This document shows, one piece after another, positions 1 to 16,285 of a stretch of 16,793 nt of DNA. Position 1 is the first letter of the stretch. Every line of letters starts with the position of its first letter. The DNA is taken from NCBI GenBank assembly GCA_046497485.1, contig JAWOFP010000032.1, positions 1-16,793 of the forward strand. The letters are read 5' to 3'. Source of the DNA: Candidatus Nanohaloarchaea archaeon. GTDB lineage: Archaea > Nanohalarchaeota > Nanosalinia > Nanosalinales > Nanosalinaceae. The translations under genes and the position numbers were made by a program. A model generated the notes under the pieces. That model was not told the origin of the DNA and did no database searches. It saw nothing but the letters and a program-made list of their open reading frames with translations.

Positions 1-920
1 TTAACACTGTATCCAAGGATATCTAATGCCATTTCCATGCTTGCTGGCCCACTGAAACCGTCTTTATCTGTTACAAAGTACTGAATTATTTCTTCCAGTG
101 TGTCGAGATCGCTCTTGCTTTTCTTGAACTTGAAATGCGATGACATAATCTCTCGGTTCTGAGCCATTAAGGAATAACCATCCTGAGTATCGATCTCGGT
201 TGAGAAAGTTGATACATTCTGAAGCTCGCCTGTCTCTTCACCGAACTTGACCTGTTCTCCAGGCCTAACTGCCCGGCTATTCTTCAGGTAGAGGCCTGCT
301 GCCAGATTCTGGAAAAGATCTTTGAACCCGTAGAATAGTAGGCCTGCAAGTAGTAAGGCTAAAGCCCATGATGCTGCTGTGACAAATTCCTGAATGGTGC
401 TTTCAGCAAGATTTGCCTGTGTTAGTATGAACTGTAGGATTAGTAGGTAGAGTATTCCTTTTAGGATCATTTCGCTGACTTGAAGAATTTCCTGGCTTAC
501 CCCAGCGTTTCTAATGTAGCTTCTAAACCCTACTGTTTTGAAGAAGTCTGTAGCAAGCTTTGTAACTATGTTTACTCCTATTACTCCGAGTATTAAAATT
601 AGAACTATTGATAGTATGTTTGGAAGTGCATCGATAAAGCCTGCGTATATTTCACGGCTGACATCCGCGTTCAGGTAAAATAAGGTTGCTGCAATAACTG
701 AAGCGTTCAGTACATATACTGAGTACTGGATCTTGCCTCTGATTCTCTGCAAAGTTTTTCTATTAGCGTCTTCCTTCCTTTCAATCAGGAATGAAGTCGC
801 TCCTCTTCTATAGACTCTAACTGCTAGATGCCCTAGTACAAGTATGAGTAGAGCTACAGTTAGACGGATTGGTAATGCTTCTGCGGTTAGAAAACCTGCT
901 AATTGAGATAGAATTGCCAA
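1..920 (-). CDS. MscS-family mechanosensitive channel, 3'-truncated by the window edge; C-terminal part resembles the start of a C39-peptidase-like domain
   Basis: Not in the ORF track; translated by hand. Open frame from TTG (918-920), with a GGTG SD-like motif upstream, to the window edge. Several TM helices, then FKDLFQNLAAGLYLKNSRAVRPGEQVKFGEETGELQNVSTFSTEIDTQDGYSLMAQN, matching the MscS TM3b/beta-domain signature. Confidence 0.8.
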   Translation of the reverse strand, partial: MAILSQLAGFLTAEALPIRLTVALLILVLGHLAVRVYRRGATSFLIERKEDANRKTLQRIRGKIQYSVYVLNASVIAATLFYLNADVSREIYAGFIDALPNILSIVLILILGVIGVNIVTKLATDFFKTVGFRSYIRNAGVSQEILQVSEMILKGILYLLILQFILTQANLAESTIQEFVTAASWALALLLAGLLFYGFKDLFQNLAAGLYLKNSRAVRPGEQVKFGEETGELQNVSTFSTEIDTQDGYSLMAQNREIMSSHFKFKKSKSDLDTLEEIIQYFVTDKDGFSGPASMEMALDILGYSV

Positions 921-963
921 GGCTTTATTGCACCTTTAGTAAGATAGAAAGGGTTTTCCGTTT

Positions 964-2148
964 TTATAAACCTTTAATTTTTCCGTGACCTATCAAACGC
1001 CAGCGCGAGTCGATTTGCCGGCTAATAGCCACTCTATCCCCGACTTCCGCACAGACAGGCATCTTCAGATTCAACCTTACATCGTCTCCTGCCTGAGTCA
1101 CTACACCAGCAGACTTAGTAGTACCTACATTGACCATTAAGGCCTCATGCTCCTTAATGTTCTCAATCTCCATCTCCTCGCCTGAACCAATTAGCGTATC
1201 CATTAATTCGACATCAAGCTCGAGTTCCTCAGTTGTTTCAGGCAGTTCTCCTTTCCTACCTAAAACATTTCCTGCCAGTCCATCGGACTTAACCAGCGAA
1301 GGATCTAGCTCAGTTTCCAGGCCTAAAAGCCCTCCTGGAACTGCTTCATCTACTGGAGAATCTCCCTGAACTATCCCCGTGATTTCTGTTGTGACTTTCT
1401 CCCATTTCTTTCCATCTTTCCTGATTCCGGGCTTTAACTCGATTTCATCGCCTTTCTGAAGCTTTCCTTTGACCAAGCTTCCTCCAAGGACTCCTCCAAG
1501 GAGACCTTTAGGCTCTGTTCCCGGCTTATTAGTGTCGAAAGATCTGGCGACAAGCATCTTTGGACTTGATTCAGTATCTCTTTCTGGAGTCGGGATCTCA
1601 TCTTCTAAGGCCTGTAAAAGCACATCGACATTAATTTCGTGCTGCGCAGACATTGGAATTATTGGCGCGTCTTCCGCTATACTGCCTTCGATGAACTCTT
1701 TGATTTGCTTATAATTTTTCTGGGCTTGCTCTTCGTCTACGAGATCAATCTTGTTCTGTACAATTACAATGTTTTCAATTCCTGCGATCTCGAGTGCTGC
1801 AAGATGTTCATGTGTCTGAGGCTGCGGACATTCTTCGTTTGCGGATACCATTAAGATGGCTCCGTCCATAATGGCTGCGCCCGAAAGAACATTTGCCATC
1901 AAGGTTTCGTGTCCCGGAGCATCGACAAGCGAAACCGTTCTCTTTTCTTCTCCCTCTCTGTCAACATTTAGGCCTTCATCGCTCTCGTAATAAGTAACAT
2001 CTGCGTATCCTAATCGGATAGTAATTCCTTTCTTTAACTCCTCACTGTGTCTATCAGTCCACTGACCGGACAAGGCTTGAGTTAAAGTGGTTTTTCCGTG
2101 GTCTACATGACCTACAAGGCCTATATTGACTTCAGGGACTTTGCTCAT
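964..2148 (-). CDS. eif2g: Archaeal translation initiation factor 2 subunit gamma
   Basis: PEVNIGLVGHVDHGKTT, HSEELKKGITIRLGYAD, DAPGHE, CPQPQT, NKID, RSFDTNKPG and the C-terminal RWRLIGHG are diagnostic; directly downstream of rps6e. Confidence 0.97.
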   Translation of the reverse strand: MSKVPEVNIGLVGHVDHGKTTLTQALSGQWTDRHSEELKKGITIRLGYADVTYYESDEGLNVDREGEEKRTVSLVDAPGHETLMANVLSGAAIMDGAILMVSANEECPQPQTHEHLAALEIAGIENIVIVQNKIDLVDEEQAQKNYKQIKEFIEGSIAEDAPIIPMSAQHEINVDVLLQALEDEIPTPERDTESSPKMLVARSFDTNKPGTEPKGLLGGVLGGSLVKGKLQKGDEIELKPGIRKDGKKWEKVTTEITGIVQGDSPVDEAVPGGLLGLETELDPSLVKSDGLAGNVLGRKGELPETTEELELDVELMDTLIGSGEEMEIENIKEHEALMVNVGTTKSAGVVTQAGDDVRLNLKMPVCAEVGDRVAISRQIDSRWRLIGHGKIKGL

Positions 2149-2513
2149 TCTTCGTCCTCTGAAAGAATTTCTTCTACGCTTTTGGAGCCTTCTTCGACTA
2201 CCTTTGCGTTTAACTGTTCGATATCTTCTGAGACTGTGTTTCCTCTGACGGACTTTCTTTTTCTTACTCCGTCTTTCTGAGTTCTGATACCTGATCCGTC
2301 TTCGATCATTACTCTTTCTCTTTCGGATCCTTCAATACTCTCTCTCATTGGGAAGCCTGCTTTATCGCTTCCTCCGGTAATTTCTAGAGTGTAGCCGTTG
2401 AGGCCTAGAATTTCTCCGTTGAAAGTATCTCCGATCTGTTTTCCTGTAAAGTTTTCAGCTTCAGTTTCTACTTGGTGTACTTCGCCGTCTTGTGTTCCAA
2501 AGTTAATTTGCAT
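2145..2513 (-). CDS. rps6e: 30S ribosomal protein S6e
   Basis: GYTLEITGGSDKAGFPMR and GVRKRKSVRGNTVSEDIEQLN motifs; GTGAT SD-like motif upstream; ATGA overlap with eif2g. Confidence 0.95.
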   Translation of the reverse strand: MQINFGTQDGEVHQVETEAENFTGKQIGDTFNGEILGLNGYTLEITGGSDKAGFPMRESIEGSERERVMIEDGSGIRTQKDGVRKRKSVRGNTVSEDIEQLNAKVVEEGSKSVEEILSEDEE

Positions 2514-2615
2514 TGTTTAATCACGCTCAGTTCTAACCGAACAATTAATTAATGGAGAAAAATCTTTTTAACCCCTGCCAGCTTTTTATGCCATTGAAAC
2601 TCTTTCAATAATATT
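2514..2615. promoter_or_regulatory. Divergent promoter region rps6e / trkH
   Basis: AT-rich gap between divergent genes; TTTTTATG at 2583-2590 lies ~26 nt before the trkH ATG, as expected for an archaeal TATA box on a leaderless mRNA. Confidence 0.55.
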
Positions 2616-4034
2616 ATGAGAGGACAGGTAGTCGCAGCGATCCAGGGCCACTTTTTGAAGGCCTTCACAGGGATAATTGCGGCGCCTATACCTGTAGGCC
2701 TTTATTACGGTGAGTCGTGGACTGGGCTTCTAGGATTTGTTTATGCATCAGTTGGGTGTCTAGTCTTAGCTCTTTCACTGAATAAAATCGGTCACTACCG
2801 GGAGCCCTCAGTGGGAGAAGCGATGATAGCCACAGTCACAGGATGGATGATAGCAATTGTTCTCGGCGCGATACCGTTCATGGTCGAAGTATCGATAACA
2901 AACTCTGTCTTTGAATCGGCTGCAGGACTGACAACCACAGGAATATCGATTTTCTTGAGGCCTGAAAACCTTCCGAACTCGCTGCTGTTCTGGAGAGCAT
3001 TGATGCAGTGGGTAGGAGGATTAGGAGTACTAACATTCTTCATAGCAGTTATTAGAGAATCTGGAGGAATCTCAAGGAAACTCTTCTCCGCAGAGACACA
3101 TAAGACAGATCCAGGAAGCATCAGGCCTTCACTCAAAAAATCGATACTAGAACTCTGGAAAGTCTATATTTTCATTACAGGCCTGTTCATCGCACTCTAT
3201 GCAGCACTGGGAATGGGAATGTTTGATGCTGTAGCCCATTCGTTCTCAGGGATCTCTACAGGAGGGTTCTCGACAACAGGCGCTAGCATGATGGCGTTCA
3301 ACCAAGGGATTCAGGTAGTTACAGTAGGATTAATGTTCTTGGGCGGAATGAACTTCGTACTAATATACAAAGGCCTGAACCTCGATACCTCAATAATCAA
3401 TAACTCGGAGTTCAGACTTTACAGCAAAGTATTCCTAGCATTTGCCGGATTATTCATGTTGGATATCTGGAGGCAAGGCCTTGAGGCCACCTGGTTTGAT
3501 GCAGTCTTCCAGTCAATAGCAGTCCTCTCCTCAACAGGCTACGGGACTATGGGGCTTCTAGGCCTTTCAGTTTTCATGCAGTTCATGCTTGTCGCATTAA
3601 TGTTTATGGGAGGCTCACTCGGATCAACATCCGGAGGAGTCAAGACTTTCAGAGTCATGACATTAATAGAGCTCCTGAAGACCCGGTTAAGAGCTTATTC
3701 GCTCCCTGATACAGCTATTAATGAGGTAAAGATTGACGGCCAGATACTGGAAAATGAGGCCATCAGAACGGTCAGCGTACTATTCTTCACCTGGATTATG
3801 ATAATAGTCGCTGGAACAGGCCTAGTAATGGCGATCGAAGACATGACCTTTATGGCCGCACTCTCAGGTACGGTCTCAGCTGCAGGAAATATGGGGCCTG
3901 TATTTATGGAAGGAACTGATATGGTGGCGCTCTCCGACCCAGTGAAGCTTATCTGGACATTTATCATGCTTGCTGGAAGACTGGAGATGCTTCCAGTACT
4001 GGCAATCTTTAATAGGGAAGTTCTCTCATCCTAA
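2616..4034 (+). CDS. trkH: Trk-type K+ uptake membrane subunit
   Basis: FESAAGLTTTG, FWRALMQWVGGLG, STGGF, SSTGY, GSTSGGVK, GNMGP, MLAGRLE; all four pore-loop glycines present. Confidence 0.95.
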   Translation: MRGQVVAAIQGHFLKAFTGIIAAPIPVGLYYGESWTGLLGFVYASVGCLVLALSLNKIGHYREPSVGEAMIATVTGWMIAIVLGAIPFMVEVSITNSVFESAAGLTTTGISIFLRPENLPNSLLFWRALMQWVGGLGVLTFFIAVIRESGGISRKLFSAETHKTDPGSIRPSLKKSILELWKVYIFITGLFIALYAALGMGMFDAVAHSFSGISTGGFSTTGASMMAFNQGIQVVTVGLMFLGGMNFVLIYKGLNLDTSIINNSEFRLYSKVFLAFAGLFMLDIWRQGLEATWFDAVFQSIAVLSSTGYGTMGLLGLSVFMQFMLVALMFMGGSLGSTSGGVKTFRVMTLIELLKTRLRAYSLPDTAINEVKIDGQILENEAIRTVSVLFFTWIMIIVAGTGLVMAIEDMTFMAALSGTVSAAGNMGPVFMEGTDMVALSDPVKLIWTFIMLAGRLEMLPVLAIFNREVLSS

Positions 4035-4037
4035 AAT

Positions 4038-4697
4038 ATGTATGTAGTAATCACCGGGATCAATATATTGTCCCGAAGACTGGTGAAAAGACTCGAAGGA
4101 CGCCACGATGTAGTAGTCGTGGAAGAAGACGAAGACAAATGCAATAGGCTATACTCTTCATCAGGAGCGACAGTCATAAACAAGTCTCCATCAACACTTA
4201 CAGCGTTAGAAGATGCTGGAATCACAGAAGCAGATATTCTAATATCCACATTGAAGGAAGACAATGAGAACATGGTAGTCTGCTCCCTCGCTAAGAAATA
4301 CGGTGTTCCAAAAGTAATTTCCAGGATGGAAGACGATGAATACTTCGATGCTTTCCAGATAATTGATGCACAGACAATAGGTCATACAGACCTCTTGCTT
4401 TCAGAGTTCCTATCAGCAGTAGAACATCCTTATTTGGTCAAGCTTTCTAATCTTTCTGAGGACAGGGAGGTGCTTAAGGCCTCAGTTAGAGAAAACTCAA
4501 ATCTGATAGAATCGACTGTTGATCAGGTAAAAAATGACTCGAGTTTCCCTGAAAGCTTCATGATCTCGACTGTTCTCAAATCAGACGACACATTGGATGC
4601 ATCGGATGATCCAATCCTAGAAGAAGGAGATGAGCTTATCTTAGTAGGACCATCTGAAGACAAAGAAATTCTGGACAAATTCTTCCAGAACCAGTAG
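4038..4697 (+). CDS. trkA: TrkA/KtrA-like RCK regulatory subunit (RCK_N + RCK_C)
   Basis: HDVVVVEEDEDKC, LEDAGITEADILI, ENMVVCSLAKKYGVPKVISR and C-terminal ILEEGDELILVG; 3 nt after trkH. Confidence 0.88.
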   Translation: MYVVITGINILSRRLVKRLEGRHDVVVVEEDEDKCNRLYSSSGATVINKSPSTLTALEDAGITEADILISTLKEDNENMVVCSLAKKYGVPKVISRMEDDEYFDAFQIIDAQTIGHTDLLLSEFLSAVEHPYLVKLSNLSEDREVLKASVRENSNLIESTVDQVKNDSSFPESFMISTVLKSDDTLDASDDPILEEGDELILVGPSEDKEILDKFFQNQ

Positions 4698-4729
4698 AAC
4701 AATAAACATTCAGGCCTTCAAATATTTCA

Positions 4730-6142
4730 ATGACCGCGATAGTCTGGATCCGTAGATCAATGCGAGAGCATGATAACACTGCTTTAGTAGAGGCCTCCAA
4801 AGAACACAATGAAATTATCCCTTTCTATGTTGTAGACGATAATTACTTTGAGAATGCTGATCTAGGTTATCCAAGGGTCAAGTTCTGGAGAGAATCACTG
4901 ATTGAATTAAGGGAAGGTCTCCAGGACAAAGGTAAAGACTTGGTCGTTAGAAAAGGAGATCCAGTAGGCCAACTCAAGAAGATATTAGAGGAAACTAATG
5001 CAGATAAAATATACTTCAATAAGGATTATTCCAAGTATTCTAGAGAAAGAGATGAGAAAGTTAGAGGCCTAGATGTAGAGGTAGAAGACTTCAAAGACAT
5101 CACAATGTTCGAGAAAGAAGAAATTCTAACAAACGATGGCTCTCCTTACAAAACTTATACTTACTACGCGAAGAAATGGTTCAAGAAAGAGAAAAGAAGG
5201 CCTCAGGAACCAGAAAATTATGAGGTCCCAACAGTTGAAAGCGATGAAATTCCTTCGCTGGATAAGTTAGGATTTGAGGAGCCGGAAAACTTTGAATGGA
5301 TCTGGAATCCGGGGCGTGAAGGAGGCCTAAAAAGAATTGAAGAGTTCAAAGAAAAAATTCTGGATTACGACGAAAATCGGGATTATGCGTGGAAAGACTC
5401 GACTTCTAAACTTTCTCCGCATCTCAAATTTGGGACAGTTTCTATCAGAGAATGTTTCTGGGAAGCCGAGAGAATTAAAGCTCGGAACCCCAACAGCGAT
5501 ACCTCAGGAGTGAAGACTTGGCAGGAAGAACTGGCCTGGAGAGACTTCTACTTCCAGATGCTATGGAACTACCCAGAGTCTCAAGATAAGGCCTTGCTAG
5601 AGCAGTTCAGAAGCATCGACTGGAGATCCAAAGAAGACGCAAAAGATGACTGGGAGGCCTTCATAAATGGAAAGACAGGATTTCCTTTCGTCGATGCAGG
5701 AATGCGCCAGTTAAAGAAGACTGGCTGGATGCACAACCGGCTGAGAATGGTTGTCACAAGCTTTGCATGTAAAGACCTCTGGCTTGACTGGAAAGACCTG
5801 CACCAGTTCTTCAACGAGAACTTTGTGGACGCAGAAATCGCTTCAATGATTGGAGGAATACAATGGGCTTACTCTATCGGAACAGATGCACAGCCTTACT
5901 TCCGCGTCTTCAATCCATGGACACAGGGAGAGAAATACGATCCTGACGGAGAATACATTCGTAAATGGGTGCCGGAACTACAAGATGTGCCGGATGAATA
6001 CATCCACAGGCCTCAAAAAATGAACCAGATCGCCCAGAAAGAATCCAACTGCATAATTGGAGAAGACTATCCTGAACCGATTGTTGACCACGATGAAGAG
6101 AGGAAAAAAGCGGTGGAAAGGTTCGAGGATGCCCGGGAATAG
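4730..6142 (+). CDS. phr: Photolyase/cryptochrome family protein (class I CPD photolyase-like)
   Basis: HDNTAL, TSKLSPHLKFGTVSIR, ELAWRDFY, GKTGFPFVDAGMRQL, GWMHNRLRM, GTDAQPYFRVFNP, DPDGEYIRKWVPEL, YPEPIVDH. Confidence 0.93.
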   Translation: MTAIVWIRRSMREHDNTALVEASKEHNEIIPFYVVDDNYFENADLGYPRVKFWRESLIELREGLQDKGKDLVVRKGDPVGQLKKILEETNADKIYFNKDYSKYSRERDEKVRGLDVEVEDFKDITMFEKEEILTNDGSPYKTYTYYAKKWFKKEKRRPQEPENYEVPTVESDEIPSLDKLGFEEPENFEWIWNPGREGGLKRIEEFKEKILDYDENRDYAWKDSTSKLSPHLKFGTVSIRECFWEAERIKARNPNSDTSGVKTWQEELAWRDFYFQMLWNYPESQDKALLEQFRSIDWRSKEDAKDDWEAFINGKTGFPFVDAGMRQLKKTGWMHNRLRMVVTSFACKDLWLDWKDLHQFFNENFVDAEIASMIGGIQWAYSIGTDAQPYFRVFNPWTQGEKYDPDGEYIRKWVPELQDVPDEYIHRPQKMNQIAQKESNCIIGEDYPEPIVDHDEERKKAVERFEDARE

Positions 6143-6183
6143 AATTTAAATGTCCATCTATAAACCCTTAGTAGTGATTAACC

Positions 6184-8286
6184 ATCAAAGCTAGAGGCCT
6201 ATTACTACTCGGATTAACACTTCTACTAATCGGATCAACAACAGCACTTTCTTGGGATAATCCCGAAAATGGAAACTTAGATTATTTAGGGCCATCAGGC
6301 ATAGATGTTAATTTAGAAGTAAACGGCTCTGACTTAGGAAGCGGAGATAGCGTTGATATTTATTACAATGTAGAATCTGAAGGTTGGACGAGTTTAGACG
6401 TATCTGAAGATGGCGATATATGGTCTGCTAGCTTTGATAATACGGGGGAAACTAGTAATGGAGATAATGTAGAGTTTAAAGCCAACACAAGCAGTTCCGA
6501 GGTAGACGATAGTGAAATAAATTTTGAAGCAACTTCGGACATATCAGGCCCAGATCTAACACTAGAGCAACCTTCCAGCGCTACAAATGATGACGACACT
6601 TCAGTTGAAGTAAGTGCAGCAGATGATGTTTCAAGTGTGGAGAATATTTCTATGACTGTTTTAGATGATAGTGACGAGGAAATTGATTCTAATACATGTG
6701 ATTCTTCAAGTTGTGAAGTAGATAATTTGGGGTTAGATGATGGAGAATATACTGTTGAAGCCGCTTCTTATGACACTATCGGAAACAATGATAATGACGA
6801 TTGGAGTTTTACTGTTGATACTAGTTATGATGGTCCGGAGGATTTCAGTTTTGATCCTTCACCTGACGTAATTAATATTGAGGATTCCTCAGATCGTGAA
6901 ATTGATGTAGAGACTGAAGAAGATAACGATGATACTGATCTTGATGTTGAGTGCAGGATTAATGACGATGATGTTGATAGCTTTACCATAGATAGTAATG
7001 ATGATGCTGGAGATGAAACCTATACTTGCGATATTTCAGATGACTATGAAGATGAAACATTTAATTTAGAACTATATATCGAAGATCAAGCAACTAATGA
7101 ATTCACTTTTGAGTCTGATGAGTTTGGATTTGACGCTAGCGCACCAAGTATCTCAGAGCTGGAATCTATTACTGGAGTCTCAGTTTTCAATGAAGACTTT
7201 GAAATGAGTTATGAGGCCTTTGACAGTGTTTCCGGCGTTGATTATATTGATTACAGCGTAGGAGACGGAGATGAGAGTCAGCTGGAAGATTCTTCCGGGA
7301 ACTTTACTGTTGATACTTCAGATCTTGAGCAGGGAAGTTATGAGGTTCAGGCTCAGGCAGTTGACAATGTTGGAAAAGTAAGTGATGAGAGAACTTTTGA
7401 GTTCGATTTCTATCCTGATGAAGTCCCTGAACTTACTCTTGAAGGCGAAACCGAGTTGAATGTGACTTCCGGTTCTGATACCACTTTGGAACTTGATTTA
7501 GAGAATACTGGGCGGCTTTTGGTGCCTGAAGGAAAAGTTTCAGGATCAGAGGACTTCGTGGAATCCGCAAGCTATGGAAATGTGGCTCCCGGAGAATCCG
7601 AGACATTAGATATAGTTTTCAGCCCAGAAAACGGGCTCGGTGAGTACACGGTTGATCTTCAGGCCTCGACTGTTGATGCTTCTCACTCTGTAGATGTATT
7701 GGTTAGAGCTGACAGCAGTGAGCAGGACGAAATCGATGAAGAAGTTCAGAACTATAGGAGTAATTTAGATGATCTGAATTCTAGAGTCGAACAGTTAAGG
7801 CCTAGCCTGGCACAGGAGAGAAAAGATAGGATTGACTCTGACTATGAAGAGTTCCAGTCACAGGTTACTGAAGCAGAGCAGGCAGTAGAAGAAGGAAGAT
7901 ACTATGAAGCGGATGAAATCCTCAGCAACTTGAACACTAGCCGGCAGTCAGCCGAATCAACTTTTGAGACGGTAAAGAGTGAACACGAGACCGCAATGAG
8001 AAACCGTTACATCTTAGCCGGCCTATTCTTAGTACTGCTGTTGATAGGCGGTGGAGCAGGATTTGTCCTTTACAGCGATGAGTATGAAATCGACATTGAG
8101 TCTCTCTCCGATCTAAGCATTGGGGGAGAAGGAGATAGTGAAGACGAGGAAGAAACTGACTCAGGTTACAGTGGACAAGGAGAGGATGAAGAGGGTTCAA
8201 AGTCTGCTATCGATAGAATCAAGGATAGAGTAGATGACTTGAGAAACGGTGAAGAAGAAAACGAGCCTGAGTATGAGTTCAAGTAA
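6184..8286 (+). CDS. Large acidic cell-surface protein (~700 aa): signal peptide, several Ig-like beta domains, CARDB-like domain, helical stalk, C-terminal TM helix, acidic tail
   Basis: The frame of track ORF 6637-8286 is open back to 6178 and encodes a clear signal peptide (IKARGLLLLGLTLLLIGSTTA-LSW). D-x-x-x-P-type domain linkers; LENTG...VAPGESETLDIVF; TM YILAGLFLVLLLIGGGAGFVLY. Exact start uncertain (ATC at 6184). Confidence 0.8.
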   Translation: MKARGLLLLGLTLLLIGSTTALSWDNPENGNLDYLGPSGIDVNLEVNGSDLGSGDSVDIYYNVESEGWTSLDVSEDGDIWSASFDNTGETSNGDNVEFKANTSSSEVDDSEINFEATSDISGPDLTLEQPSSATNDDDTSVEVSAADDVSSVENISMTVLDDSDEEIDSNTCDSSSCEVDNLGLDDGEYTVEAASYDTIGNNDNDDWSFTVDTSYDGPEDFSFDPSPDVINIEDSSDREIDVETEEDNDDTDLDVECRINDDDVDSFTIDSNDDAGDETYTCDISDDYEDETFNLELYIEDQATNEFTFESDEFGFDASAPSISELESITGVSVFNEDFEMSYEAFDSVSGVDYIDYSVGDGDESQLEDSSGNFTVDTSDLEQGSYEVQAQAVDNVGKVSDERTFEFDFYPDEVPELTLEGETELNVTSGSDTTLELDLENTGRLLVPEGKVSGSEDFVESASYGNVAPGESETLDIVFSPENGLGEYTVDLQASTVDASHSVDVLVRADSSEQDEIDEEVQNYRSNLDDLNSRVEQLRPSLAQERKDRIDSDYEEFQSQVTEAEQAVEEGRYYEADEILSNLNTSRQSAESTFETVKSEHETAMRNRYILAGLFLVLLLIGGGAGFVLYSDEYEIDIESLSDLSIGGEGDSEDEEETDSGYSGQGEDEEGSKSAIDRIKDRVDDLRNGEEENEPEYEFK

Positions 8287-8303
8287 ATTTTCTTAATTTT
8301 TCC
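8287..8303 (+). terminator. Oligo-T archaeal terminator-like tract
   Basis: ATTTTCTTAATTTTTCC directly after the stop codon, between convergent genes. Confidence 0.45.
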
Positions 8304-8645
8304 TTATATTTTCTCAGTGTTTCTGAACTGTGACTTCATTAGGCCTTTCGCTCTAACAGTCTCGAGTACTTGCCTGAATTCATGTAGATAAGTTTCATCT
8401 GCTGCAGCATTCGAAGCTGCCTCGTCTATCAGAAGCATGATCTGTGGATCGTCTCTAAACTTTCTGATTAGTTCCTTGTTTGCGCGTTTCTTGTTTAGGT
8501 ACTGGCTGACGGCTGGCTGTGTGATATCCATTTTTTCCCCAATCTCTTTCTGGTATAGGCCATAGTCGTCTGCTAACTTCTCCGCTAGAAGTGAACGCGC
8601 CGCGGGTAGAAAGTCTCTGGTAATGGTTTCTGCTTCAAAATCCAT
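8304..8645 (-). CDS. Archaeal HTH transcriptional regulator (COG2522-like)
   Basis: FLPAARSLLAEKL...GLYQKEIGEKMDITQPAVSQYLNKKR is the typical HTH of this family. Confidence 0.85.
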   Translation of the reverse strand: MDFEAETITRDFLPAARSLLAEKLADDYGLYQKEIGEKMDITQPAVSQYLNKKRANKELIRKFRDDPQIMLLIDEAASNAAADETYLHEFRQVLETVRAKGLMKSQFRNTEKI

Positions 8646-8651
8646 ACAAAA

Positions 8652-8668
8652 TTATAACGGGGTTATAA
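8652..8668. promoter_or_regulatory. Perfect inverted repeat TTATAAC-GGG-GTTATAA, candidate operator of the HTH gene
   Basis: Lies between a minus-strand TATA-like TATTTAAG (8671-8678) and the ATG at 8645. Confidence 0.65.
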
Positions 8669-8731
8669 CTCTTAAATACTGTTGTTAGATGGAACAAGAA
8701 AAAGAGAGGTAAAATATGTGTCAGACTTTAA

Positions 8732-9073
8732 CTAGAGATCGCTCTGCTGAACTTCTCTGGAGAGCTTCTCAATGTCTGCGCTTAAGGCCTCAAGCTTTCT
8801 GCTGACTCTTTCTTTCTCCTTTATGATGTTCTCTACTTTCTCATACTTTCGAGCTGCGTGATCAAGATGATGTTTTTCGACATAAGCTGCGTCGGTATCC
8901 ATCATGTTTTCGATTATTTCGTTTGCAATCTTACCTAGCAGGATATTAAGTCCAAAGTAGACATTTGACCGTACATACTGGCCTTCGCCTGCCTCGTCTC
9001 TAATCATTCTTTTTACTCTTGCATGAGTGAAAGGTAAGTCTTCTATTTCAGTATCTTCAGGTACTTCAACCAT
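8732..9073 (-). CDS. Histone-fold protein with C-terminal coiled-coil extension (113 aa)
   Basis: Start moved to ATG 9073 (GTGAT SD-like motif just upstream). LPFTHARVKRMIRD...VRSNVYFGLNILLGKIANEII...YVEKHHLDHA follows the alpha1-L1-alpha2-L2-alpha3 pattern of archaeal histones (LPxAxxxRIxK...RVSxxA...TIKxEDIxxA), then a heptad-rich tail. Confidence 0.7.
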   Translation of the reverse strand: MVEVPEDTEIEDLPFTHARVKRMIRDEAGEGQYVRSNVYFGLNILLGKIANEIIENMMDTDAAYVEKHHLDHAARKYEKVENIIKEKERVSRKLEALSADIEKLSREVQQSDL

Positions 9074-9160
9074 GTTATCACACAAAAAATTCGGGTTACA
9101 GGCTTTTAACTCTTGTCGAAAACCGCAAGTTATAAACACAGGCCTTTCGAGTGAATATTT

Positions 9161-9376
9161 ATGATAGAACTTGCAACGCTAAACGCCGTGCTCGATGCTA
9201 TACTGAAGATTATGGCGATCTTTATCGCAGGCTACTTCGTGTTCTTAATGAAGAATTTTCAGGATTTTATCCAGAAAGCGGAGAAGTCAGTTGAATCAGT
9301 TGAGCAGTCGGCAGAGGCCGTAGAGAAATCAGTTAGATGGGGTAAAATTCTTCCATTCATAGGTGGTAAGGAATGA
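9161..9376 (+). CDS. Small membrane protein (one TM helix + short coiled coil)
   Basis: Hydrophobic N-terminus; TTATAAAC TATA-like box ~25 nt upstream; ATGA overlap with the next gene. Confidence 0.7.
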   Translation: MIELATLNAVLDAILKIMAIFIAGYFVFLMKNFQDFIQKAEKSVESVEQSAEAVEKSVRWGKILPFIGGKE

Positions 9377-9627
9377 ATGACTTTCTAGAAGCAGCGAAAA
9401 ACTCTAAGAGCGGAGATAAAGACGATGATTCTGGCGAGAGATATGAAAAACTGAAGAAGGAAGAAGCTGGAACACAGGATGAAGATTTGGCGAAGAAAAG
9501 GTTTGAAGAGTTGAAGGAAGAAGCCAAGCAAGACTACATTGAGAAGCAGAAACGGAAGGAGAAGGAAAGAAAGGAAAAAGAGAAGGAAGAAGAGGAAGAA
9601 GACAGAGAAAGTTTCGTGACTCACTGA
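9373..9627 (+). CDS. Small highly charged (K/E/D) hypothetical protein
   Basis: GGTGGT SD-like motif upstream; coupled to genes on both sides; low-complexity charged helix. Confidence 0.7.
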   Translation: MNDFLEAAKNSKSGDKDDDSGERYEKLKKEEAGTQDEDLAKKRFEELKEEAKQDYIEKQKRKEKERKEKEKEEEEEDRESFVTH

Positions 9628-10803
9628 ATGGCCTTACAGGAAGTACCGCGAATCACCAAGTATCTCTCAGTAGTCATGTTGTTCGGCTGGCTCGGCAGGA
9701 ATACTGTCTGGCAGTTTCTACCAGTCTATTTCGAAATGCATATAGAATCAGTTTTCCTAATCGGCATTCTGACATCTATACCTGCAGCAGTAAGTATACT
9801 GATGGATATACCAGTGAGTAACTATGTCCAGAGAGTAGGAGAAAAATTCGTGTTCTTCACAGGCCTTGTGTTCGGTGCTTTCCCTGCAGTTGCCTATATA
9901 GCAGCGACCCCTTTAACTCTTGCTTTTGGCAAACTGTTTGAAGGAGTTACAAAGAGTCTAGTCTGGAACAGTGGCTGGAGTCTCTCAATGAAGAGTTCGA
10001 ATGAAGACTCTGAATCAAAATCTCTTTCAGTCTTTTTACTTGGCGTAAATCTCGCAGCAATCTTGGGCCCAATAATTGGAGGATACTTGATCCTCAGTAA
10101 CGGATTTAATCTAGTCTTAGGCCTATGGCTATTAACATCAATAATCTCAATCGGTATATTTTTGTCCTACATAGGGATCTCTTCAAAGGCGGACAAGGTA
10201 CTGATGTTCGAGGAGCTTTTCAAATCAAAGACTTACTCAAACGACTTCAACCATTTGAAAGAGCACTGGAGAAAGGTCACGCCAGCCTATGGAATGATTT
10301 TCCTTTATTCGATCATATTCTCATTTTTCTGGCTTGCAGTACCTCTAGCACTAGAAGAGGCTGGAGCAACTTATGTGGAAATGGGATTCATTTTCGGACT
10401 GGCTGCATTACCTAAGGCCTTCCAAATATTTTTCGGAGATCTCGCGGATAGAATAGGACGGTATAGGATGCTTATTTTGCTTTCAGCAGCATTAAATCCT
10501 GTACTGTTTGCGATGTACTTCCTTGAAGGTCCTTTGATGCTTGGAGCATTTTTCTTTGTAGCAGCTCTACTGACTAATGGAATTCCTCCTATAATTCATA
10601 CAGTATTTGATCAGCGGGCGCCGGAAGAAGTGGAGAGCGAACTCGTAGGATTTATGGAGACCTCAAAACATGTAGGACAGTTTATAGGGCCTGCGATGGC
10701 GGGAACAGTTGCTTCTGCATTCAGTCTTTCAGCCTCTTTCGCAGCCGCAGGAATAATCTCTCTAGTGATGTTAGGCTATTCGATGAAGCTTCAGAGATTG
10801 TGA
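9628..10803 (+). CDS. MFS transporter
   Basis: ~12 TM segments; motif A GDLADRIGRYR in the second half; AAILGPIIGGYL motif. Confidence 0.9.
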   Translation: MALQEVPRITKYLSVVMLFGWLGRNTVWQFLPVYFEMHIESVFLIGILTSIPAAVSILMDIPVSNYVQRVGEKFVFFTGLVFGAFPAVAYIAATPLTLAFGKLFEGVTKSLVWNSGWSLSMKSSNEDSESKSLSVFLLGVNLAAILGPIIGGYLILSNGFNLVLGLWLLTSIISIGIFLSYIGISSKADKVLMFEELFKSKTYSNDFNHLKEHWRKVTPAYGMIFLYSIIFSFFWLAVPLALEEAGATYVEMGFIFGLAALPKAFQIFFGDLADRIGRYRMLILLSAALNPVLFAMYFLEGPLMLGAFFFVAALLTNGIPPIIHTVFDQRAPEEVESELVGFMETSKHVGQFIGPAMAGTVASAFSLSASFAAAGIISLVMLGYSMKLQRL

Positions 10804-11498
10804 AGTTTTCCAAAGTCAAATACTCCGGCTTCACGGGAGATAGCATAGGCCTCAAAATCTCCTAAATTAAAATCCTTCAAAATCGGGGAAAGTAGTTCTG
10901 AAGAGCTCATCCTGTTGATCTCTGAACCATTTGAGATGGGGGAGTATGCAGGTAAAACAAATATCTCTTTCTCGGAATATAGATGAAGTAATGCATCGAC
11001 CTTTTCAGTCACTCCGATATCATCTTCGAGAGCAAGCGCCGGATGCTCGTGACCAATCACAATCGTGCTCCAATCCTGTTCAGGCCTTTCATCTCCATGC
11101 GTAAACAGCACGCCATCTTCTTCATACTGTTCAAGAGGCCTCAACCCGTGTTCTTCCAGTATGCTATCGATAAAAGTATCGTGATTACCCTTGATTATGA
11201 TCACATCCTGAAAATTATCGGTCAGGAAGCCTACTAAGTCATCAATCTCGGATTTCTCACTGTAACTGGTAGAGTACTGATTCTTCAAATCCCCATTAAT
11301 CAGAATCCTATCACAGCCGGTTAATTCTCTAATTTCCTCCAACTCTTCCTTAACTTGATCTAATTGGAACTCAGGAATATAATTCCCTCTGGAAGTCATA
11401 CTTGCTTCCAGGCCTAGATGCAGATCACTGATCGCAATCAAATCTAATTCTGGGAAATAGATTGCTGGGTAATTTCCAATTATTTTGAAATCTGTCAC
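10791..11498 (-). CDS. Calcineurin-like metallophosphoesterase (COG1407 / PdeM-like)
   Basis: SDLHLG, NGDLK, GNHD, HGD and GHEHP motifs intact; GTG start overlapping the DUF58 stop (GTGA). Confidence 0.9.
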   Translation of the reverse strand: MTDFKIIGNYPAIYFPELDLIAISDLHLGLEASMTSRGNYIPEFQLDQVKEELEEIRELTGCDRILINGDLKNQYSTSYSEKSEIDDLVGFLTDNFQDVIIIKGNHDTFIDSILEEHGLRPLEQYEEDGVLFTHGDERPEQDWSTIVIGHEHPALALEDDIGVTEKVDALLHLYSEKEIFVLPAYSPISNGSEINRMSSSELLSPILKDFNLGDFEAYAISREAGVFDFGKLHNL

Positions 11499-12352
11499 TG
11501 GTTAACTAGTTTCCAGATATCTATAAAAGAATCAAAGAAATCCTCGTCAGTCGAGACAAGCTGATAGTTAGCACCGTACTCATCGCATAAGGCCTCTATC
11601 CCTTCAGTATGCTCCTTCAACTTAGACTTGTAACTTGATTTCGTGCTTCTGGAAAGATAAGCTCTTACAGTAGAATCTGACTCAGGGTCCTCAAGGATTG
11701 TATCGCCGGAAAAAGAAGGATCAAGCTCCTCATCATCAAAGACATTCACCAAAATAACTTGGCTGCCTTTCAAGGCCTGAAGACTAGACTCTATCTGATC
11801 TAAATCAGTTAGGAAATCTGATATAATCACTACAACTGACTTATTCTTAATTCTGGAGCTGTACTGCGTTATACAGTGCTCAACCTTGCTTTCAGGCGTC
11901 TTACGCATACCGTTCAAAGTATCAACTAACTGAATCAAGTTACCGTTACGCCGGGCAGAAGTCAAGTCAGTTAAGGTCTCGGAGAAAACAGAAAACCTGA
12001 AACGGTCATTAGTTTTATTCGTCATATAAGCCAGGCCTAATCCTAACTGCCCTCCAAACTCATACTTGTTTTTATCTCCAAAATCCATTGAACTACTTCT
12101 ATCAAGTATTATATGGACCGTAACACTCCTTTCTTCATCAAATCTTTTCACAAAGAATTCTTTGGTTCGCGCGTAGGCCTTCCAGTCAATCTTTCTAATG
12201 TCGTCTCCCGGAACATACTCTTTGTGATCTTTGAAAATCATTCCTTGTCCGGAGAAGTCACTGTTCTGCTCTCCCTGCTTCATCTCGTTAGAGTTCTTCT
12301 CTAACGCTATCTGAAATCTTTCTAACTCGTTAAGGAACTCGGCTTCAATCAT
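11495..12352 (-). CDS. DUF58 family (vWA-like) MoxR partner
   Basis: FKDHKEYVPGDDIRKIDWKAYART, MIDAS-like DRSSS, VVIISDF. Confidence 0.92.
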   Translation of the reverse strand: MIEAEFLNELERFQIALEKNSNEMKQGEQNSDFSGQGMIFKDHKEYVPGDDIRKIDWKAYARTKEFFVKRFDEERSVTVHIILDRSSSMDFGDKNKYEFGGQLGLGLAYMTNKTNDRFRFSVFSETLTDLTSARRNGNLIQLVDTLNGMRKTPESKVEHCITQYSSRIKNKSVVVIISDFLTDLDQIESSLQALKGSQVILVNVFDDEELDPSFSGDTILEDPESDSTVRAYLSRSTKSSYKSKLKEHTEGIEALCDEYGANYQLVSTDEDFFDSFIDIWKLVNQ

Positions 12353-13311
12353 ACTCCTTCAACTATTTCCTCGATCACATCGTCTTCTTTCAGGCCTTTT
12401 TTCTCCGCCGCAAAGCTGAGACCGATTCTATGCCTTAGAACAGGTTTCGCCATCTTATCCACATCTTTCTGAGATACATGGTTTCTATTATTAATCAATG
12501 CATGGCCTTTAGCCGCTAAAACCAGGTTTATCGAAGCTCTCGGCGACGCACCGTAATCCAGCTCATTCTTCTTCCTAGTAGCTCTGACAATGTTTACCAC
12601 ATCATTCAGTATATCGTCTGCTATAGGTACCTGCCTGGTGAACTCCTGAAGTTTAATTAAAGAGGCCTTGGAAATAACTTTTTTCAGCTCCGGACTGTAA
12701 TCGAGCTCAGTTGTAAACCGTTTAACAATCTTCTCTTCCTCATCATGCTCCGGGAAATCAAGTGTGATCTTCATCATGAAACGATCTCTCTGCGCTTCCG
12801 GGAGCGGATAGGTTCCTTCCTGTTCAATCGGATTCTGAGTCGCTATAAGGAAGAAAGGAGCCTCAAGCTCATATGAACGGTTTCCGACCGTTACCTGTTT
12901 CTCCTGCATCGCTTCCAGTAAAGCAGACTGAGTCTTAGGTGTCGCACGGTTAATCTCATCTGCTAAAACCATGTTAGCAAAGATAGGACCTTCCTGGAAC
13001 TCGAACTCAGCTTCACCAGAAGACTCATCAATTATATGAGTTCCTGTAATATCTGAGGGCATCAGGTCCGGAGTAGATTGAATCCTTGAGAACTCTAGGC
13101 CTATAGTCTGAGAAATTGTCGAAGCCATCTTTGTCTTACCCATTCCAGGATTTGATTCCAGTAAGATGTTTCCATCGCAGAGCATACATGTCAAAACCTG
13201 GTCTATAACTTCTTCCTGCCCTACAATTACTTTCCCTACTTCATTTTTGATTTCGGCCAGTTTTTCATTCACTTTTTCATACTTTACTGAGCTCTTATCG
13301 GATAACTTCAT
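12349..13311 (-). CDS. moxR: MoxR-family AAA+ ATPase
   Basis: Walker A ESNPGMGKT, RIQSTPDLMPSDITG, Walker B LADEINRATPKTQSALLEAMQE, ATQNPIEQEGTYPLPEAQRDRF, GASPRA, VLRHR. Confidence 0.95.
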   Translation of the reverse strand: MKLSDKSSVKYEKVNEKLAEIKNEVGKVIVGQEEVIDQVLTCMLCDGNILLESNPGMGKTKMASTISQTIGLEFSRIQSTPDLMPSDITGTHIIDESSGEAEFEFQEGPIFANMVLADEINRATPKTQSALLEAMQEKQVTVGNRSYELEAPFFLIATQNPIEQEGTYPLPEAQRDRFMMKITLDFPEHDEEEKIVKRFTTELDYSPELKKVISKASLIKLQEFTRQVPIADDILNDVVNIVRATRKKNELDYGASPRASINLVLAAKGHALINNRNHVSQKDVDKMAKPVLRHRIGLSFAAEKKGLKEDDVIEEIVEGV

Positions 13312-13341
13312 ACAACATTAATTGACGGGCCTCATTAATAA

Positions 13342-14079
13342 TTATTCAATGTCCCTTATTGCAAGACTGTACTCTCTCATCAACCAAGAATCCTCCTCAA
13401 TTTCGGGAGATGCCTCATACATCAGCTCTCTATCTCCTTCAAAACCTCTTAAAACGCTTTCTTCAAAGCTTTCTCCCTCGCCAACAATCTCAATGTCTAC
13501 ATCTGAGCCAGTATCGTCTAAATCAGACTCTTCTCCTAAGACATCTGAAGCATTTCCACGGAAATCATCTCCATCATCCTGAGAACCAACTATATCAGAT
13601 ATACGATCGTAAGCGCCAGAAGCATCTACATCGATAACAGGCACTATTAGGCCTGAAACTGTCGTTAAAATCGCAAGGCCTCCAACCAGGAAAAGTTTTT
13701 GAACAATTCTCTCTGAAGGTATTATGCTTTCGGAACTTACTGTCCTGGCTCTTTCCATTACATCGCCGAACAATGCCTCGGAAACCGTATCTCGTTTATC
13801 AAGATTGTCTCTAGCAGTTCTCAAAAGTTCCTGAAGCTCATCGTTTTGATCCTCGTAAATCTCCACGCTGTAGCCACGAGTCCTGTAAATCAGGTTCCCT
13901 AAGAAAAATACTGCTGCTATCCCTCCAAGTATCCGAAAATCATACTCAAAACTTGCCAGAAAAGCTAGAAAATTCAGGCCTAAAACCAGTATAAGTGTAT
14001 CAAGACTGCTCTGTAAGGCCTTAATCTTCCAGTATTCTCTTTTCAGTCTTTTAAGCAGAGTCTCAATTCTCATAGTCAT
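13342..14079 (-). CDS. Hypothetical membrane protein (3 TM segments, acidic C-terminal region) upstream of moxR
   Basis: Hydrophobic segments, conserved-looking LQELLRTARDN motif, host-like composition; start may be 14073. Confidence 0.75.
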   Translation of the reverse strand: MTMRIETLLKRLKREYWKIKALQSSLDTLILVLGLNFLAFLASFEYDFRILGGIAAVFFLGNLIYRTRGYSVEIYEDQNDELQELLRTARDNLDKRDTVSEALFGDVMERARTVSSESIIPSERIVQKLFLVGGLAILTTVSGLIVPVIDVDASGAYDRISDIVGSQDDGDDFRGNASDVLGEESDLDDTGSDVDIEIVGEGESFEESVLRGFEGDRELMYEASPEIEEDSWLMREYSLAIRDIE

Positions 14080-14521
14080 CTATCCAAGTCTCGCAGACAA
14101 CTGTCGAATTATCGTTCAAGTCTTCTTCATTGCAGATGTCTTCGAGATCATTTCTTATTGTTCTGAAGTCTTCTCTAAATCTGTTTCTTTCACTTTCAAG
14201 CTCAGAAGTTTGGTTTCTAAGTCGCTCAAGTTCTCCTTCTAAGTCCGATTCTTCTGATTCGATGTCTCCTATCTGCTGCTCGAGCTCCGAAGTTCTATTC
14301 TGTAAATTCCGGTTCTGCTGTAATAGTTTAGTATTGTTTGCTTCTAAGGCTCTTTTTTCCGAGTTTAACTCATCTATCTCCGTCTCTAGTTCGGCCCGGT
14401 CTCCTGCAATGTCCTCAAACTGGGTCTGAAAAACAATGGATAATCCTACCAGTAGTGAGAGGCCTACAACCGTTGTAAGCAGCAGGAATGGGTTGAGCCG
14501 TCGCTTCAGTAAGAACTTCAT
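14063..14521 (-). CDS. Membrane-anchored coiled-coil protein (152 aa)
   Basis: Start moved to ATG 14521 (MKFLLKRRLNPFLLL...), removing the overlap with the divergent gene. N-terminal TM, ~100-aa heptad repeat, C-terminal Cys pair. Confidence 0.75.
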   Translation of the reverse strand: MKFLLKRRLNPFLLLTTVVGLSLLVGLSIVFQTQFEDIAGDRAELETEIDELNSEKRALEANNTKLLQQNRNLQNRTSELEQQIGDIESEESDLEGELERLRNQTSELESERNRFREDFRTIRNDLEDICNEEDLNDNSTVVCETWIDDYEN

Positions 14522-14597
14522 CTCTACAATAATTTGGTTTCTGAAAGGTTTAATACCTCGGCCTATTTTTAAGTAGAATCCAATCCAATTATCAATT

Positions 14598-16280
14598 ATG
14601 TCTTCAGGAGGAAACTCTGACAACTGCAGCTTCGGCCACACATTCATCCACTATGATGACCAAGGCGGAGTCTCAGGAGAAGCAAAAGAAGCAGTAAAGG
14701 ACATTAGAAAGGGCAAACTGAACAGTTATGAAGAACTTCAAGATAGAGGCCTAGGCCTTATGGATATAATGGGAGGCCCTATCAGAAAATTGAAGGCTAA
14801 AGGTAATGGACAGGGAACAGGTTACGGAGTTGTCTTGACCGCACCCGACAAATATGATGAAGACCTTGATTATACAGTCAAGCGAGTTACAGAATCAATT
14901 TTTGTTTCTCCTCAAAGCCAGTTGCATGATGAGTTTATGCAGAGAAAGCAGCAGGCGGAGCAGAGAGTGAATCAGACGCTTTCAAACTTTTCAGATATAC
15001 TTGAACAGAAACACCTGCTTGAGCACGATATCAGGAAGTTAAGGAGCCGTGCAGAGGCCTTCAATTCAAAGGATGAAGATATCTTGAAAGGAGATTTCGT
15101 TCAGTTAGTAGATGGAGCCGGAGCAGGAGGACAAGGAGCAGATGAACAGGCCTTAAGGTTCTTGAGAGATAACAATATCTATCCGACGATTGTCGCAGAC
15201 TTCATGGAGATGGACTCTGTCGATGACCTAAAGAAAGCAGATAATCACGACGATGTAGATGAAGACGGCCATCTTGCTGATCTTCCAAGAAATGAGAAGG
15301 CGATTCTCAGGAAAAAGTTCACGATGTATGAGAAATGGAAGGACATGTACGGAAGCGAAGTGAACCGCCGATTGAAAGAGTTAAAGTCCCAGCAGCAGAA
15401 TATCGAGCAAAGCATTCAGAAGACCAAAGACTGGCTTGAGCCCTATGTAAAGGATGTCGTAATGATCAACGAGATGGGCGACCAGCAGAATGATTTAACC
15501 AAATACTACGAATGGAAGGGCTACTCCTCAATGGAGAGAAACCTAGAATTTATTTGCTACAAAGGCTTCAAGAAGGAGAATGGCAGACTAGTGGAAGAAC
15601 CTGATGATCCGACACATTACAGAGTTATGCATGTCTTCGGAGTCCATGTCGTGACAGCGAAAGGCGAACAACCGAACCAGCCGGGCGGAAGCAGCACAGG
15701 AGTAGTATTCTGGAGGCCTGCAATCGTCTGCAAGCATGTCTTCGAGAACTTCTTCGAGCCTAAAATCAAGGAAGCTGATAACCTGGTAGAGGAAATGCAT
15801 GACAAGTATGTTGGGAACTTTGAAGGCTACCCCGAATCTGATGAAATCAAAGAAGCCAGGGAAGCAGAGGATATGTCCGTTAGAGAACTACGAGATAAAA
15901 TTCAAGAAGAGTACAAAAATATCTTAGAAAATGAAGGAGAGGACTTCGAAAATGCTTCAATCCCTATAGAGTTCTCCTCGAAAATCAGGCGTGTTGAAGA
16001 CGGCTTAGATCATCCTGAAAGCATAATTGAAGACTACTCAATTCACCATTATGAGGCCTTACAGAATGTTCTAGACTTAGACTTTGATGATGACGAAGAA
16101 GATGAGAATGAGATGCTAGAAGGCGTGAAAGAAGATATAGCAAAGTTCACGGGAAAGACTGATCAATTTTATTTAGATGGAGACGCTCAAGGCCAGGCGA
16201 TGATGGATATGGTAACAGAGTTTAGATTTGATTTTTATTTTGACTACAAAATTGGCTTCGGCATGAACACGATGAAATAA
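14598..16280 (+). CDS. Hypothetical 560-aa acidic protein with coiled coils and a possible interrupted XRE-type HTH
   Basis: Long ORF with host-like composition; TTTTTAAG TATA-like box ~25-30 nt upstream; no catalytic motif recognised. Confidence 0.8.
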   Translation: MSSGGNSDNCSFGHTFIHYDDQGGVSGEAKEAVKDIRKGKLNSYEELQDRGLGLMDIMGGPIRKLKAKGNGQGTGYGVVLTAPDKYDEDLDYTVKRVTESIFVSPQSQLHDEFMQRKQQAEQRVNQTLSNFSDILEQKHLLEHDIRKLRSRAEAFNSKDEDILKGDFVQLVDGAGAGGQGADEQALRFLRDNNIYPTIVADFMEMDSVDDLKKADNHDDVDEDGHLADLPRNEKAILRKKFTMYEKWKDMYGSEVNRRLKELKSQQQNIEQSIQKTKDWLEPYVKDVVMINEMGDQQNDLTKYYEWKGYSSMERNLEFICYKGFKKENGRLVEEPDDPTHYRVMHVFGVHVVTAKGEQPNQPGGSSTGVVFWRPAIVCKHVFENFFEPKIKEADNLVEEMHDKYVGNFEGYPESDEIKEAREAEDMSVRELRDKIQEEYKNILENEGEDFENASIPIEFSSKIRRVEDGLDHPESIIEDYSIHHYEALQNVLDLDFDDDEEDENEMLEGVKEDIAKFTGKTDQFYLDGDAQGQAMMDMVTEFRFDFYFDYKIGFGMNTMK

Positions 16281-16285
16281 GAGGG

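Follow-up and report, generated by a model that had tools for sequence, protein, structure and literature searches.

The described systems closest to the DNA word reported here are the highly iterated palindrome HIP1 (GCGATCGC) of cyanobacteria with its alternate highly iterated palindromes (HIPs), the uptake signal sequences (USS) of Pasteurellaceae, the DNA uptake sequences (DUS) of Neisseriaceae, the Chi sites of RecBCD/AddAB, and very-short-patch repair of the Dcm/Vsr and Mig type. Repair of this last type can enrich a short palindrome through its bias, needs a 5-methylcytosine (5mC) methyltransferase, depletes T:G precursors and acts site by site. HIP1 raises transformation and tracks competence genes (PMC13756078), while CAGGCCTG, the alternate HIP of Synechococcus sp. 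PCC 6312, reaches 0.37 per kb with an observed/expected ratio (O/E) of 14.7 (PMC5861425). In Haemophilus, two uptake sequences less than 100 bp apart act as one and give a single uptake peak (PMC7811141), and uptake sequences double the tripeptides that they encode (PMC2817400). Here we describe the hexamer AGGCCT in a 16,793-nucleotide stretch of DNA from a Candidatus Nanohaloarchaea archaeon (assembly GCA_046497485.1, contig JAWOFP010000032.1), hereafter the window; its genome is G000, other genomes are also given G-numbers, genera g-numbers and loci L-numbers. The word is real, genome-wide and patchy within its lineage, and resembles both HIP1 and uptake sequences, yet on the features tested it belongs to neither class.

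Like HIP1 and its alternates, AGGCCT is a perfect palindrome found in all frames and in spacers (PMC5861425; PMC13756078; PMC4390886), with deviations that lie outside a 4-bp core, positions shared between genomes beyond those of control words, and repeated losses. CAGGCCTG contains the AGGCCT hexamer, so that the first-pass annotation of the window, which named HIP1 as the known palindromic exception, needs correction for this near-twin (PMC5861425); AGGCCT is about nine times denser (3.4 vs 0.37 per kb). Unlike HIP1, it is archaeal and 6 bp long, without the sequence GCGATCGC or a cyanobacterial host, no cognate methyltransferase was found for it, and no 10-90 kb periodicity rises above a refill null. 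Short-range exclusion between its sites is not described in the available text of Xu et al. (PMC5861425). With USS and DUS it shares a point-mutation origin, enriched peptides, scarcity in foreign genes, a core with weaker flanks, redundant close pairs (here a genomic signature only) and paired spacer copies in one genome, G005 (PMC7811141; PMC2817400); unlike them it is a palindromic 6-mer of about three times their density, and neither ComEC nor DprA was found in carriers. Chi, named in the introduction of PMC4390886, is likewise an over-represented short word and a proposed self mark in recombination. It is oriented and non-palindromic, whereas AGGCCT is palindromic with near-matches enriched in both orientations, and no such enzyme was identified. 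In contrast to Dcm/Vsr and Mig repair, the word goes with neither a shared methyltransferase nor depleted T:G precursors. No description of AGGCCT enrichment in archaea was found in the literature searched, which also included PMC11001535 and PMC10266531 and had most subscription papers outside its reach. The main text of two nanohaloarchaeal methylome papers reports the motif GDGCHC and has no AGGCCT or GGCC, although their supplementary motif tables could bear on methylation.

AGGCCT in genes, spacers and proteins

Exactly 59 copies lie between positions 261 and 16059 of the window, the number the first-pass annotation had given for about 16.3 kb. The excess that it reported is real, though somewhat smaller by the null used here: 200 dinucleotide shuffles give 3.81 +/- 2.07 copies (maximum 13), an enrichment of about 15-fold where about 3 expected copies and 20-fold had been proposed. 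Called genes contain 56 of the 59, in all three codon phases (9 in frame 0, 20 in frame 1, 27 in frame 2) and on both strands, conserved genes among them as had been noted; the other three are intergenic, one more than previously recorded. GGCC occurs 86 times in positions 1-16280, of which 59 (69%) are part of AGGCCT and 17 of the remaining 27 differ from it at one flank, in keeping with the earlier hand count of roughly 70% and over half.

The enrichment is not limited to this contig. G000 carries 3,249 copies in 967,558 bases, present on 66/66 contigs at 1.8-5.8 per kb and with all 16 flank pairs. Relative to Markov models, the excess is 14.8-fold at order 1 and 6.4-fold at order 2, where the next palindrome reaches 1.6-fold. 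Nor does it vanish under codon-preserving shuffles: with genes called by our own simple caller (1,090 genes), coding DNA holds 2,905 copies vs 373-435 in 20 within-gene synonymous shuffles, about 7-fold. These copies fill 67% of the 4,343 places where the protein permits the word, as against 3-5% for six control hexamers. Spacers hold 196 copies in 57 kb, compared with 4 in 62 kb of the non-carrier G024, with no preference for convergent or divergent gaps in G000, and its sites show no promoter, terminator or within-gene position bias. Foreign-looking genes (restriction-modification) rank among the emptiest, and genes without homologues have 2.74 sites per kb vs 3.65 in core genes.

AGGCCT has altered amino acids to fit the word. 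Permitted places number 15.0 and 15.3 per 1000 amino acids (aa) in carriers vs 8.5 and 9.7 in non-carriers. RP, EAS and GL are 2.2, 2.5 and 1.45 times as common in G000 as in its G024 orthologues (reversed controls 0.89-1.07), and across orthologues the carrier excess of RP, EAS, GL and [EKQ]A[SFYL] ranges from 1.3- to 3.8-fold, with 0.9-1.3 for reversed controls. Ribosomal-protein genes disfavour the AGG, GCC and GGC codons that AGGCCT needs, yet its pressure overrides codon preference: fill in the most codon-optimised sixth of genes is still 0.65-0.69. With odds of 30-90 (about e^3.5-4.5), the force per site would nevertheless be weak, a small multiple of drift. An rpl10e-like gene (G000:C8:13738-14256; G005 27510-28031) has none of its 5 permitted places filled in either carrier, and EF-1alpha is likewise empty in both. 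A separate observation concerns ACGT, strongly avoided genome-wide in G000 and G024 (0.38 and 0.28 of codon-aware expectation) and nearly absent from 20 kb of G047, with no such avoidance in G005 or G055.

Core, flanks and neighbouring sites

At places where the protein leaves no room for the complete hexamer, near-matches with GGCC intact are enriched in both orientations, mostly 1.1-3.3 in G000 (two classes are depleted there) and up to 6.8-fold in G005, whereas those that break GGCC stay mostly near non-carrier values. GGCC-keeping near-matches also avoid full sites within 25 bp (0.69, 0.77), while GGCC-breaking ones do not (1.01, 1.03). Beyond the hexamer, two genera prefer C at +1 and A at +3/+4, in genes as well as in spacers; T is also favoured at +10 to +12. 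Genus g19 (L094, L095) and locus L019 have a looser word, with AGGCC plus any base 2.5-4-fold enriched in 20-kb samples. A graded, symmetric, double-stranded preference of this kind would be more like that of a binding protein than an all-or-none enzyme site.

Neighbouring sites exclude each other. Gaps under 30 bp number 74 in G000, where 167 +/- 10 are expected, and 214 in G005 (274 +/- 9 expected); the window by itself has no significant shortage of close gaps (6/58 under 50 bp vs 8.7 expected). The observed/expected ratio for permitted pairs in G000 with both places filled rises from 9 to 130 bp as 0.17, 0.35, 0.56, 0.67, 0.73, 0.77, 0.77, 0.87 and 0.93, then reaches 1, and for pooled control words (control palindromes and frequent hexamers) it is about 1. 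Expressed per filled neighbour, the odds of fill are 0.09 at 6-14 bp, then 0.32, 0.53, 0.61 and 0.54 (60-79 bp), further out 0.89 and 0.81, and 0.98 at 130 bp or more. At the 725 places that the G024 orthologue permits as well, fill grows from 0.05 to 0.91 with distance to a site. G001 is similar to G000 in this effect, with small numbers.

No helical (10.5-bp) or 30-bp phasing of sites is seen. The largest gaps are not shortened either, those above 1 kb numbering 82 vs 82 +/- 7 expected in G000 and 91 vs 84 +/- 5 in G005. A period of 10-90 kb was looked for in G005 only (a single contig) by a simpler method than that of Xu et al.; its 52-kb peak was reached in 4/300 uniform simulations but equalled in 111/300 refill simulations, and so does not rise above the refill null. 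As a side observation, G005 spacers (e.g., at 15841, 113235, 298439 and 330184) contain about 12 intergenic AGGCCT pairs 12 bp apart, several with longer arms that are potential hairpins and resemble paired uptake sequences.

Carriers, candidate readers and features of the window

The enrichment extends beyond this genome to others of the Nanohaloarchaeota, as the first-pass annotation had proposed checking. We classed 70 genomes of the phylum as 12 carriers (AGGCCT at 4.3-17 times a reversed control word), one intermediate (G004, 762 copies in about 0.8 Mb) and 57 non-carriers (at most 1.6). All 12 carriers fall within one family, in which genus g2 has two carriers among six genomes. On a six-protein tree of 21 genomes the carrier label takes four changes, at least three of them forced by strong branches, and carriers do not form one clade; a tree of NucS groups the intermediate G004 with the carrier G003. 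Sites are also conserved in position between orthologues: 41-57% of G005 sites have a G000 site at the corresponding codons, as against 9-12% for control words, partly due to refilling, since third positions are saturated. Of 928 G005 sites forbidden by the G024 protein, 209 recur in G000 at the same codons (background 0.24%); G055 retains 4-12% of sites and G024 0-3%. Because positions are shared between genomes, a single origin with several losses seems favoured over convergence at tolerant positions. Named loci among the eIF2-gamma relatives may derive from some of the genomes above and were not counted as independent.

Halobacteria-class genomes, the potential hosts, have about 30-fold fewer sites (61/61 at 0.008-0.29 per kb, median 0.12). 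None of the viral loci looked at (80/121) had an acidic halophile-type proteome. Four non-halophile viral or proviral contigs (L323, L338, L286, L321) have about 2 dispersed AGGCCT per kb with varied flanks, and their hosts may have a similar word. The first 20 kb of G055 contigs C1, C2, C4 and C6 (L114, L115, L117, L119) are almost without matches to G005 proteins; these are possibly viruses, plasmids or bin contamination.

No reader of AGGCCT was found. The first-pass annotation had suggested looking for a co-occurring AGGCCT/GGCC methyltransferase, and none is common to carriers in searches with three Pfam families and a motif scan. PF00145 was not found in the single-contig carriers G005, G010 and G022, which rejects the C5 methyltransferase of G000 as the driver; PF02086 is over cut-off in 0/5 carriers and PF01555 in 1/5 (under cut-off in G000), and nothing in G000 matches the type I and IIG enzymes of G005. 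Transition precursors are not specially depleted at permitted places in G000 (AGGTCT 0.86, AAGCCT 0.68, AGGCTT 0.51-0.65), most transversion variants lying at 0.08-0.50. A gene-content screen of the carriers G000 and G005 against the non-carriers G024 (whole) and G055 (278 kb of about 976 kb) gave 54-57 candidates, 32 of which were Pfam-scanned and seven tested in other genomes. PolB2 was not found in the single-contig carriers G022 and G053 and occurs in many non-carriers; the SWIM protein is also missing from G022 and G053. A double-GNAT protein occurs in 13/50 genomes, non-carriers included, and was not found in G010 or G045. The DUF483-like protein, the coiled-coil protein and the second Cdc6 are all present in the non-carrier G057, and the HD protein is in 22/50 genomes, including 13 that lack the word and also the intermediate G004. 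NucS occurs in carriers and non-carriers with no separating column among 32 sequences, and a small-ORF screen gave nothing convincing among the matches listed. Side observations from these searches are a His-to-Asp change in the conserved GHE motif of G024 NucS (L247), private to G024 among those 32; a 240-aa membrane protein (L135:3598-4317 (+); G000:C25:9601-10323) with 46 homologues, 74% identity across genera against a 60% norm and a place in a site-poor island of G000, which is probably mobile; and a frameshifted gene for a membrane-anchored Mrr-like nuclease (G000:C59:11255-11952), also in a site-poor island.

An allele-level screen of 111 four-way genes ranked a paralogue artefact first, a 159-aa protein second and the main HMf-type histone third. 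The 159-aa protein (G000:C38:19427-19903 (-); L168:3655-4131 (-)) is encoded next to the histone gene; its 59 homologues, the named ones nearly all nanohaloarchaeal, are 65-94% conserved and match no Pfam family. A winged-helix-like fold is predicted for it (pLDDT 68), with PadR/LmrR as the best Foldseek match (E 0.015). It is a candidate chromatin protein in its own right. Leu replaces Lys before the predicted recognition helix in 12/13 site-rich vs 1/18 site-poor loci. The codons of this change spell AGGCCT in three carrier groups and one-step or decayed variants in others; it is therefore a consequence, the word having rewritten the protein, and it was rejected as a cause, the carrier G010 having Lys. 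The histone (65 aa) has 4-5/65 differences between carriers of different genera and 6-11/65 between carriers and non-carrier congeners, with Thr63 in 15/18 site-rich and 2/23 site-poor loci and absent from the loose-motif genus. A four-residue rule, drawn post hoc, separates all Thr63-scored loci, and the positions that track the word presumably face the dimer-dimer interface. The histone follows the word better than phylogeny, yet the Thr63 column (accuracy 0.88) is not above the best of 921 control columns from neighbouring proteins (0.96, 0.92, 0.91, 0.90), and it is a weak lead.

The features of the window are collected in Table 1. The eIF2-gamma protein has nanohaloarchaea as its nearest named relatives, and an Rfam scan of the window gave no match. 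Contigs compared with the window show no difference inside AGGCCT among the 40 of 3,343 differences listed, a comparison with no statistical power. The final 513 bases have a read depth of 2.2 vs 15-330 elsewhere in the best run and are probably a foreign, mis-joined (chimeric) contig end; their lack of AGGCCT had been reported and is correct, but with about 1.7 copies expected there it is not significant by itself. A 113-aa protein (8735-9073 (-)), by eye a histone fold with a C-terminal coiled coil and with no real Pfam match, has 81-88% identity in relatives both with and without AGGCCT enrichment.

Table 1. Features of the window (positions in the 16,793-nucleotide stretch).
Feature	Position	Strand	Remark
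AGGCCT copies, dispersed	261..16059	.	n=59, 3.6 per kb; sample of a genome-wide word
eIF2-gamma gene (eif2g)	964..2148	-	5 AGGCCT, arisen in frame by point changes
Ribosomal protein S6e gene (rps6e)	2145..2513	-	1 AGGCCT, at 2401
Intergenic AGGCCT between trkA-like and photolyase genes	4712..4717	.	
Intergenic AGGCCT past the photolyase gene	6195..6200	.	Missing from the first-pass list
Intergenic AGGCCT	9140..9145	.	
MoxR AAA ATPase gene (moxR)	12349..13311	-	3 AGGCCT
Tandem pair AGGCCTAGGCCT in coding DNA	14747..14758	.	Reported earlier and real; sole 6-bp-spaced pair in G000, where close pairs are strongly depleted
Bacterial-looking tail, outside the feature	16281..16793	.	64% GC; GDPD fragment and tatB-like fragment (by eye); no AGGCCT

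Possible causes of the enrichment

AGGCCT sites arise by point mutation in all frames and in spacers, rewrite amino acids, have a GGCC core with graded flanks, are saturated by a nearby site, and are present, decayed or absent in close relatives. The genome-wide system that the first-pass annotation had proposed to create or select the word is supported by the shuffles, the 66/66 contigs, the peptides and the neighbour curve. Of the mechanisms it offered, a methyltransferase plus biased repair is not supported, there being no DNA methyltransferase shared by the carriers searched and no specially depleted one-step precursor; a binding protein or a self or recombination mark would each fit the neighbour effect and graded flanks.

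By analogy with uptake sequences, we give a probability of about 40% to a recombination-linked drive, in which a symmetric DNA-binding protein would bias recombination towards AGGCCT-bearing DNA. Such a reader would recognize the word on double-stranded DNA, probably without methylation, and once bound would act on its neighbourhood beyond the six bases. In recombination between homologous copies, the one with a bound site would have the advantage, and new sites would then be propagated by molecular drive in the manner of bacterial uptake sequences. Because of the neighbour curve, mutation or repair bias acting site by site is not readily explanatory, while a saturating force is. The drive is ranked first because uptake sequences share its marks, HIP1 is tied to transformation and Halobacteria are site-poor. 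Several points weigh against it. A 6-bp palindrome is less informative than the 9-10-bp non-palindromic uptake sequences. ComEC was found in 0/5 genomes searched, other archaeal transfer systems lying outside that search, DprA occurs in 1/50, a non-carrier, and no gene was found to track the word. The reach of the neighbour effect differs by genus, about 130 bp in G000 and under 30 bp in G005, and the latter is compatible with plain steric exclusion. No halo of lower divergence surrounds sites (0.445-0.463 over five distance bins), a weak comparison with third positions near saturation. Pairs with neither place filled are also in excess, and a joint model with filled and empty neighbours was therefore fitted to G000, in which a filled neighbour still had its effect (below 80 bp, odds of 0.09 to 0.54 and z of -3.9 to -8.3).

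A more specific form of the recombination-linked drive, which we regard as rather doubtful, is that AGGCCT serves as a self signal independent of ComEC and methylation, by which the symbiont would tell its own from host DNA in exchange or gene conversion. It would be the first archaeal drive of the uptake-sequence kind and would have rewritten about two thousand amino acids per proteome, including the Lys-to-Leu change of the winged-helix-like protein; its reach would have evolved between genera, and the word would decay where the reader was lost. Given the scarcity of sites in Halobacteria-class genomes, the word could separate self from host.

Ordinary selection for the sites of an abundant chromatin protein is the main rival, unlikely though credible, with a dimer at AGGCCT organising or protecting DNA and a second site within its footprint redundant. 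A protein footprint would match the exclusion under 30 bp in both whole genomes, and the A and T flank preferences resemble a bending pattern. The closeness of the histone between carriers and the distribution of Thr63 would also agree. Against this, the histone column does not surpass the best control columns, and the loose-motif genus does without Thr63. Histones, moreover, do not read six bases strictly. A nucleoid role has been argued for HIP1 by Xu et al. (PMC5861425); here phasing is lacking, the 52-kb peak lies within the refill null, and close relatives live without the enrichment.

It is improbable that AGGCCT acts as a Chi-like self mark, at which a nuclease or resection complex is stopped or disarmed so that own DNA is spared and foreign DNA with few sites is degraded; host or virus DNA of that kind may enter a symbiont that scavenges nucleotides. 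Chi is polar and non-palindromic. Redundancy of neighbours would be expected if the nearest site is what counts, yet the largest gaps are not shortened. No shared nuclease emerged, the Mrr-like gene being frameshifted in G000 and NucS occurring in carriers and non-carriers alike. The low density in Halobacteria-class genomes would suit such a mark, as would the avoidance of GGCC by Haloquadratum (PMC3119063).

Harder still to credit is a methyl-directed repair ratchet (the Elhai model) or Vsr/Mig-type repair, in which a modified base in GGCC would steer mismatch repair to AGGCCT without any gain for the cell. It is mainly the bases outside the GGCC core that deviate, as in HIP1 (PMC4390886), methylation of GGCC is known from cyanobacteria (PMC13756078), and a strand-marking version could also yield neighbour effects. 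However, the searches with PF00145, PF02086 and PF01555 and the type I/IIG comparison give no shared methyltransferase (a host-supplied or other modifier is possible), and AGGTCT, AGGCTT and AAGCCT are not depleted beyond transversion variants. A by-product of codon or amino-acid preference, or an inserted repeat, is refuted by the 7-fold excess over synonymous shuffles, the filled spacers, the disfavoured codons in ribosomal-protein genes, the presence of all 16 flank pairs and the empty Rfam scan.

For three decades the reason for HIP1 has been debated between hypotheses of a methylation ratchet, a nucleoid role and uptake. A comparable word has arisen independently in an archaeal symbiont of about 1 Mb that seems to have neither a cognate methyltransferase nor bacterial competence genes, and congeners that have, are losing or lack the word make the cause directly testable. 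AGGCCT is a DNA-level signal that reshapes the proteome and a strong marker for binning and for foreign DNA, and it may point to a hitherto unrecognised way in which DPANN archaea exchange DNA or recognise self.

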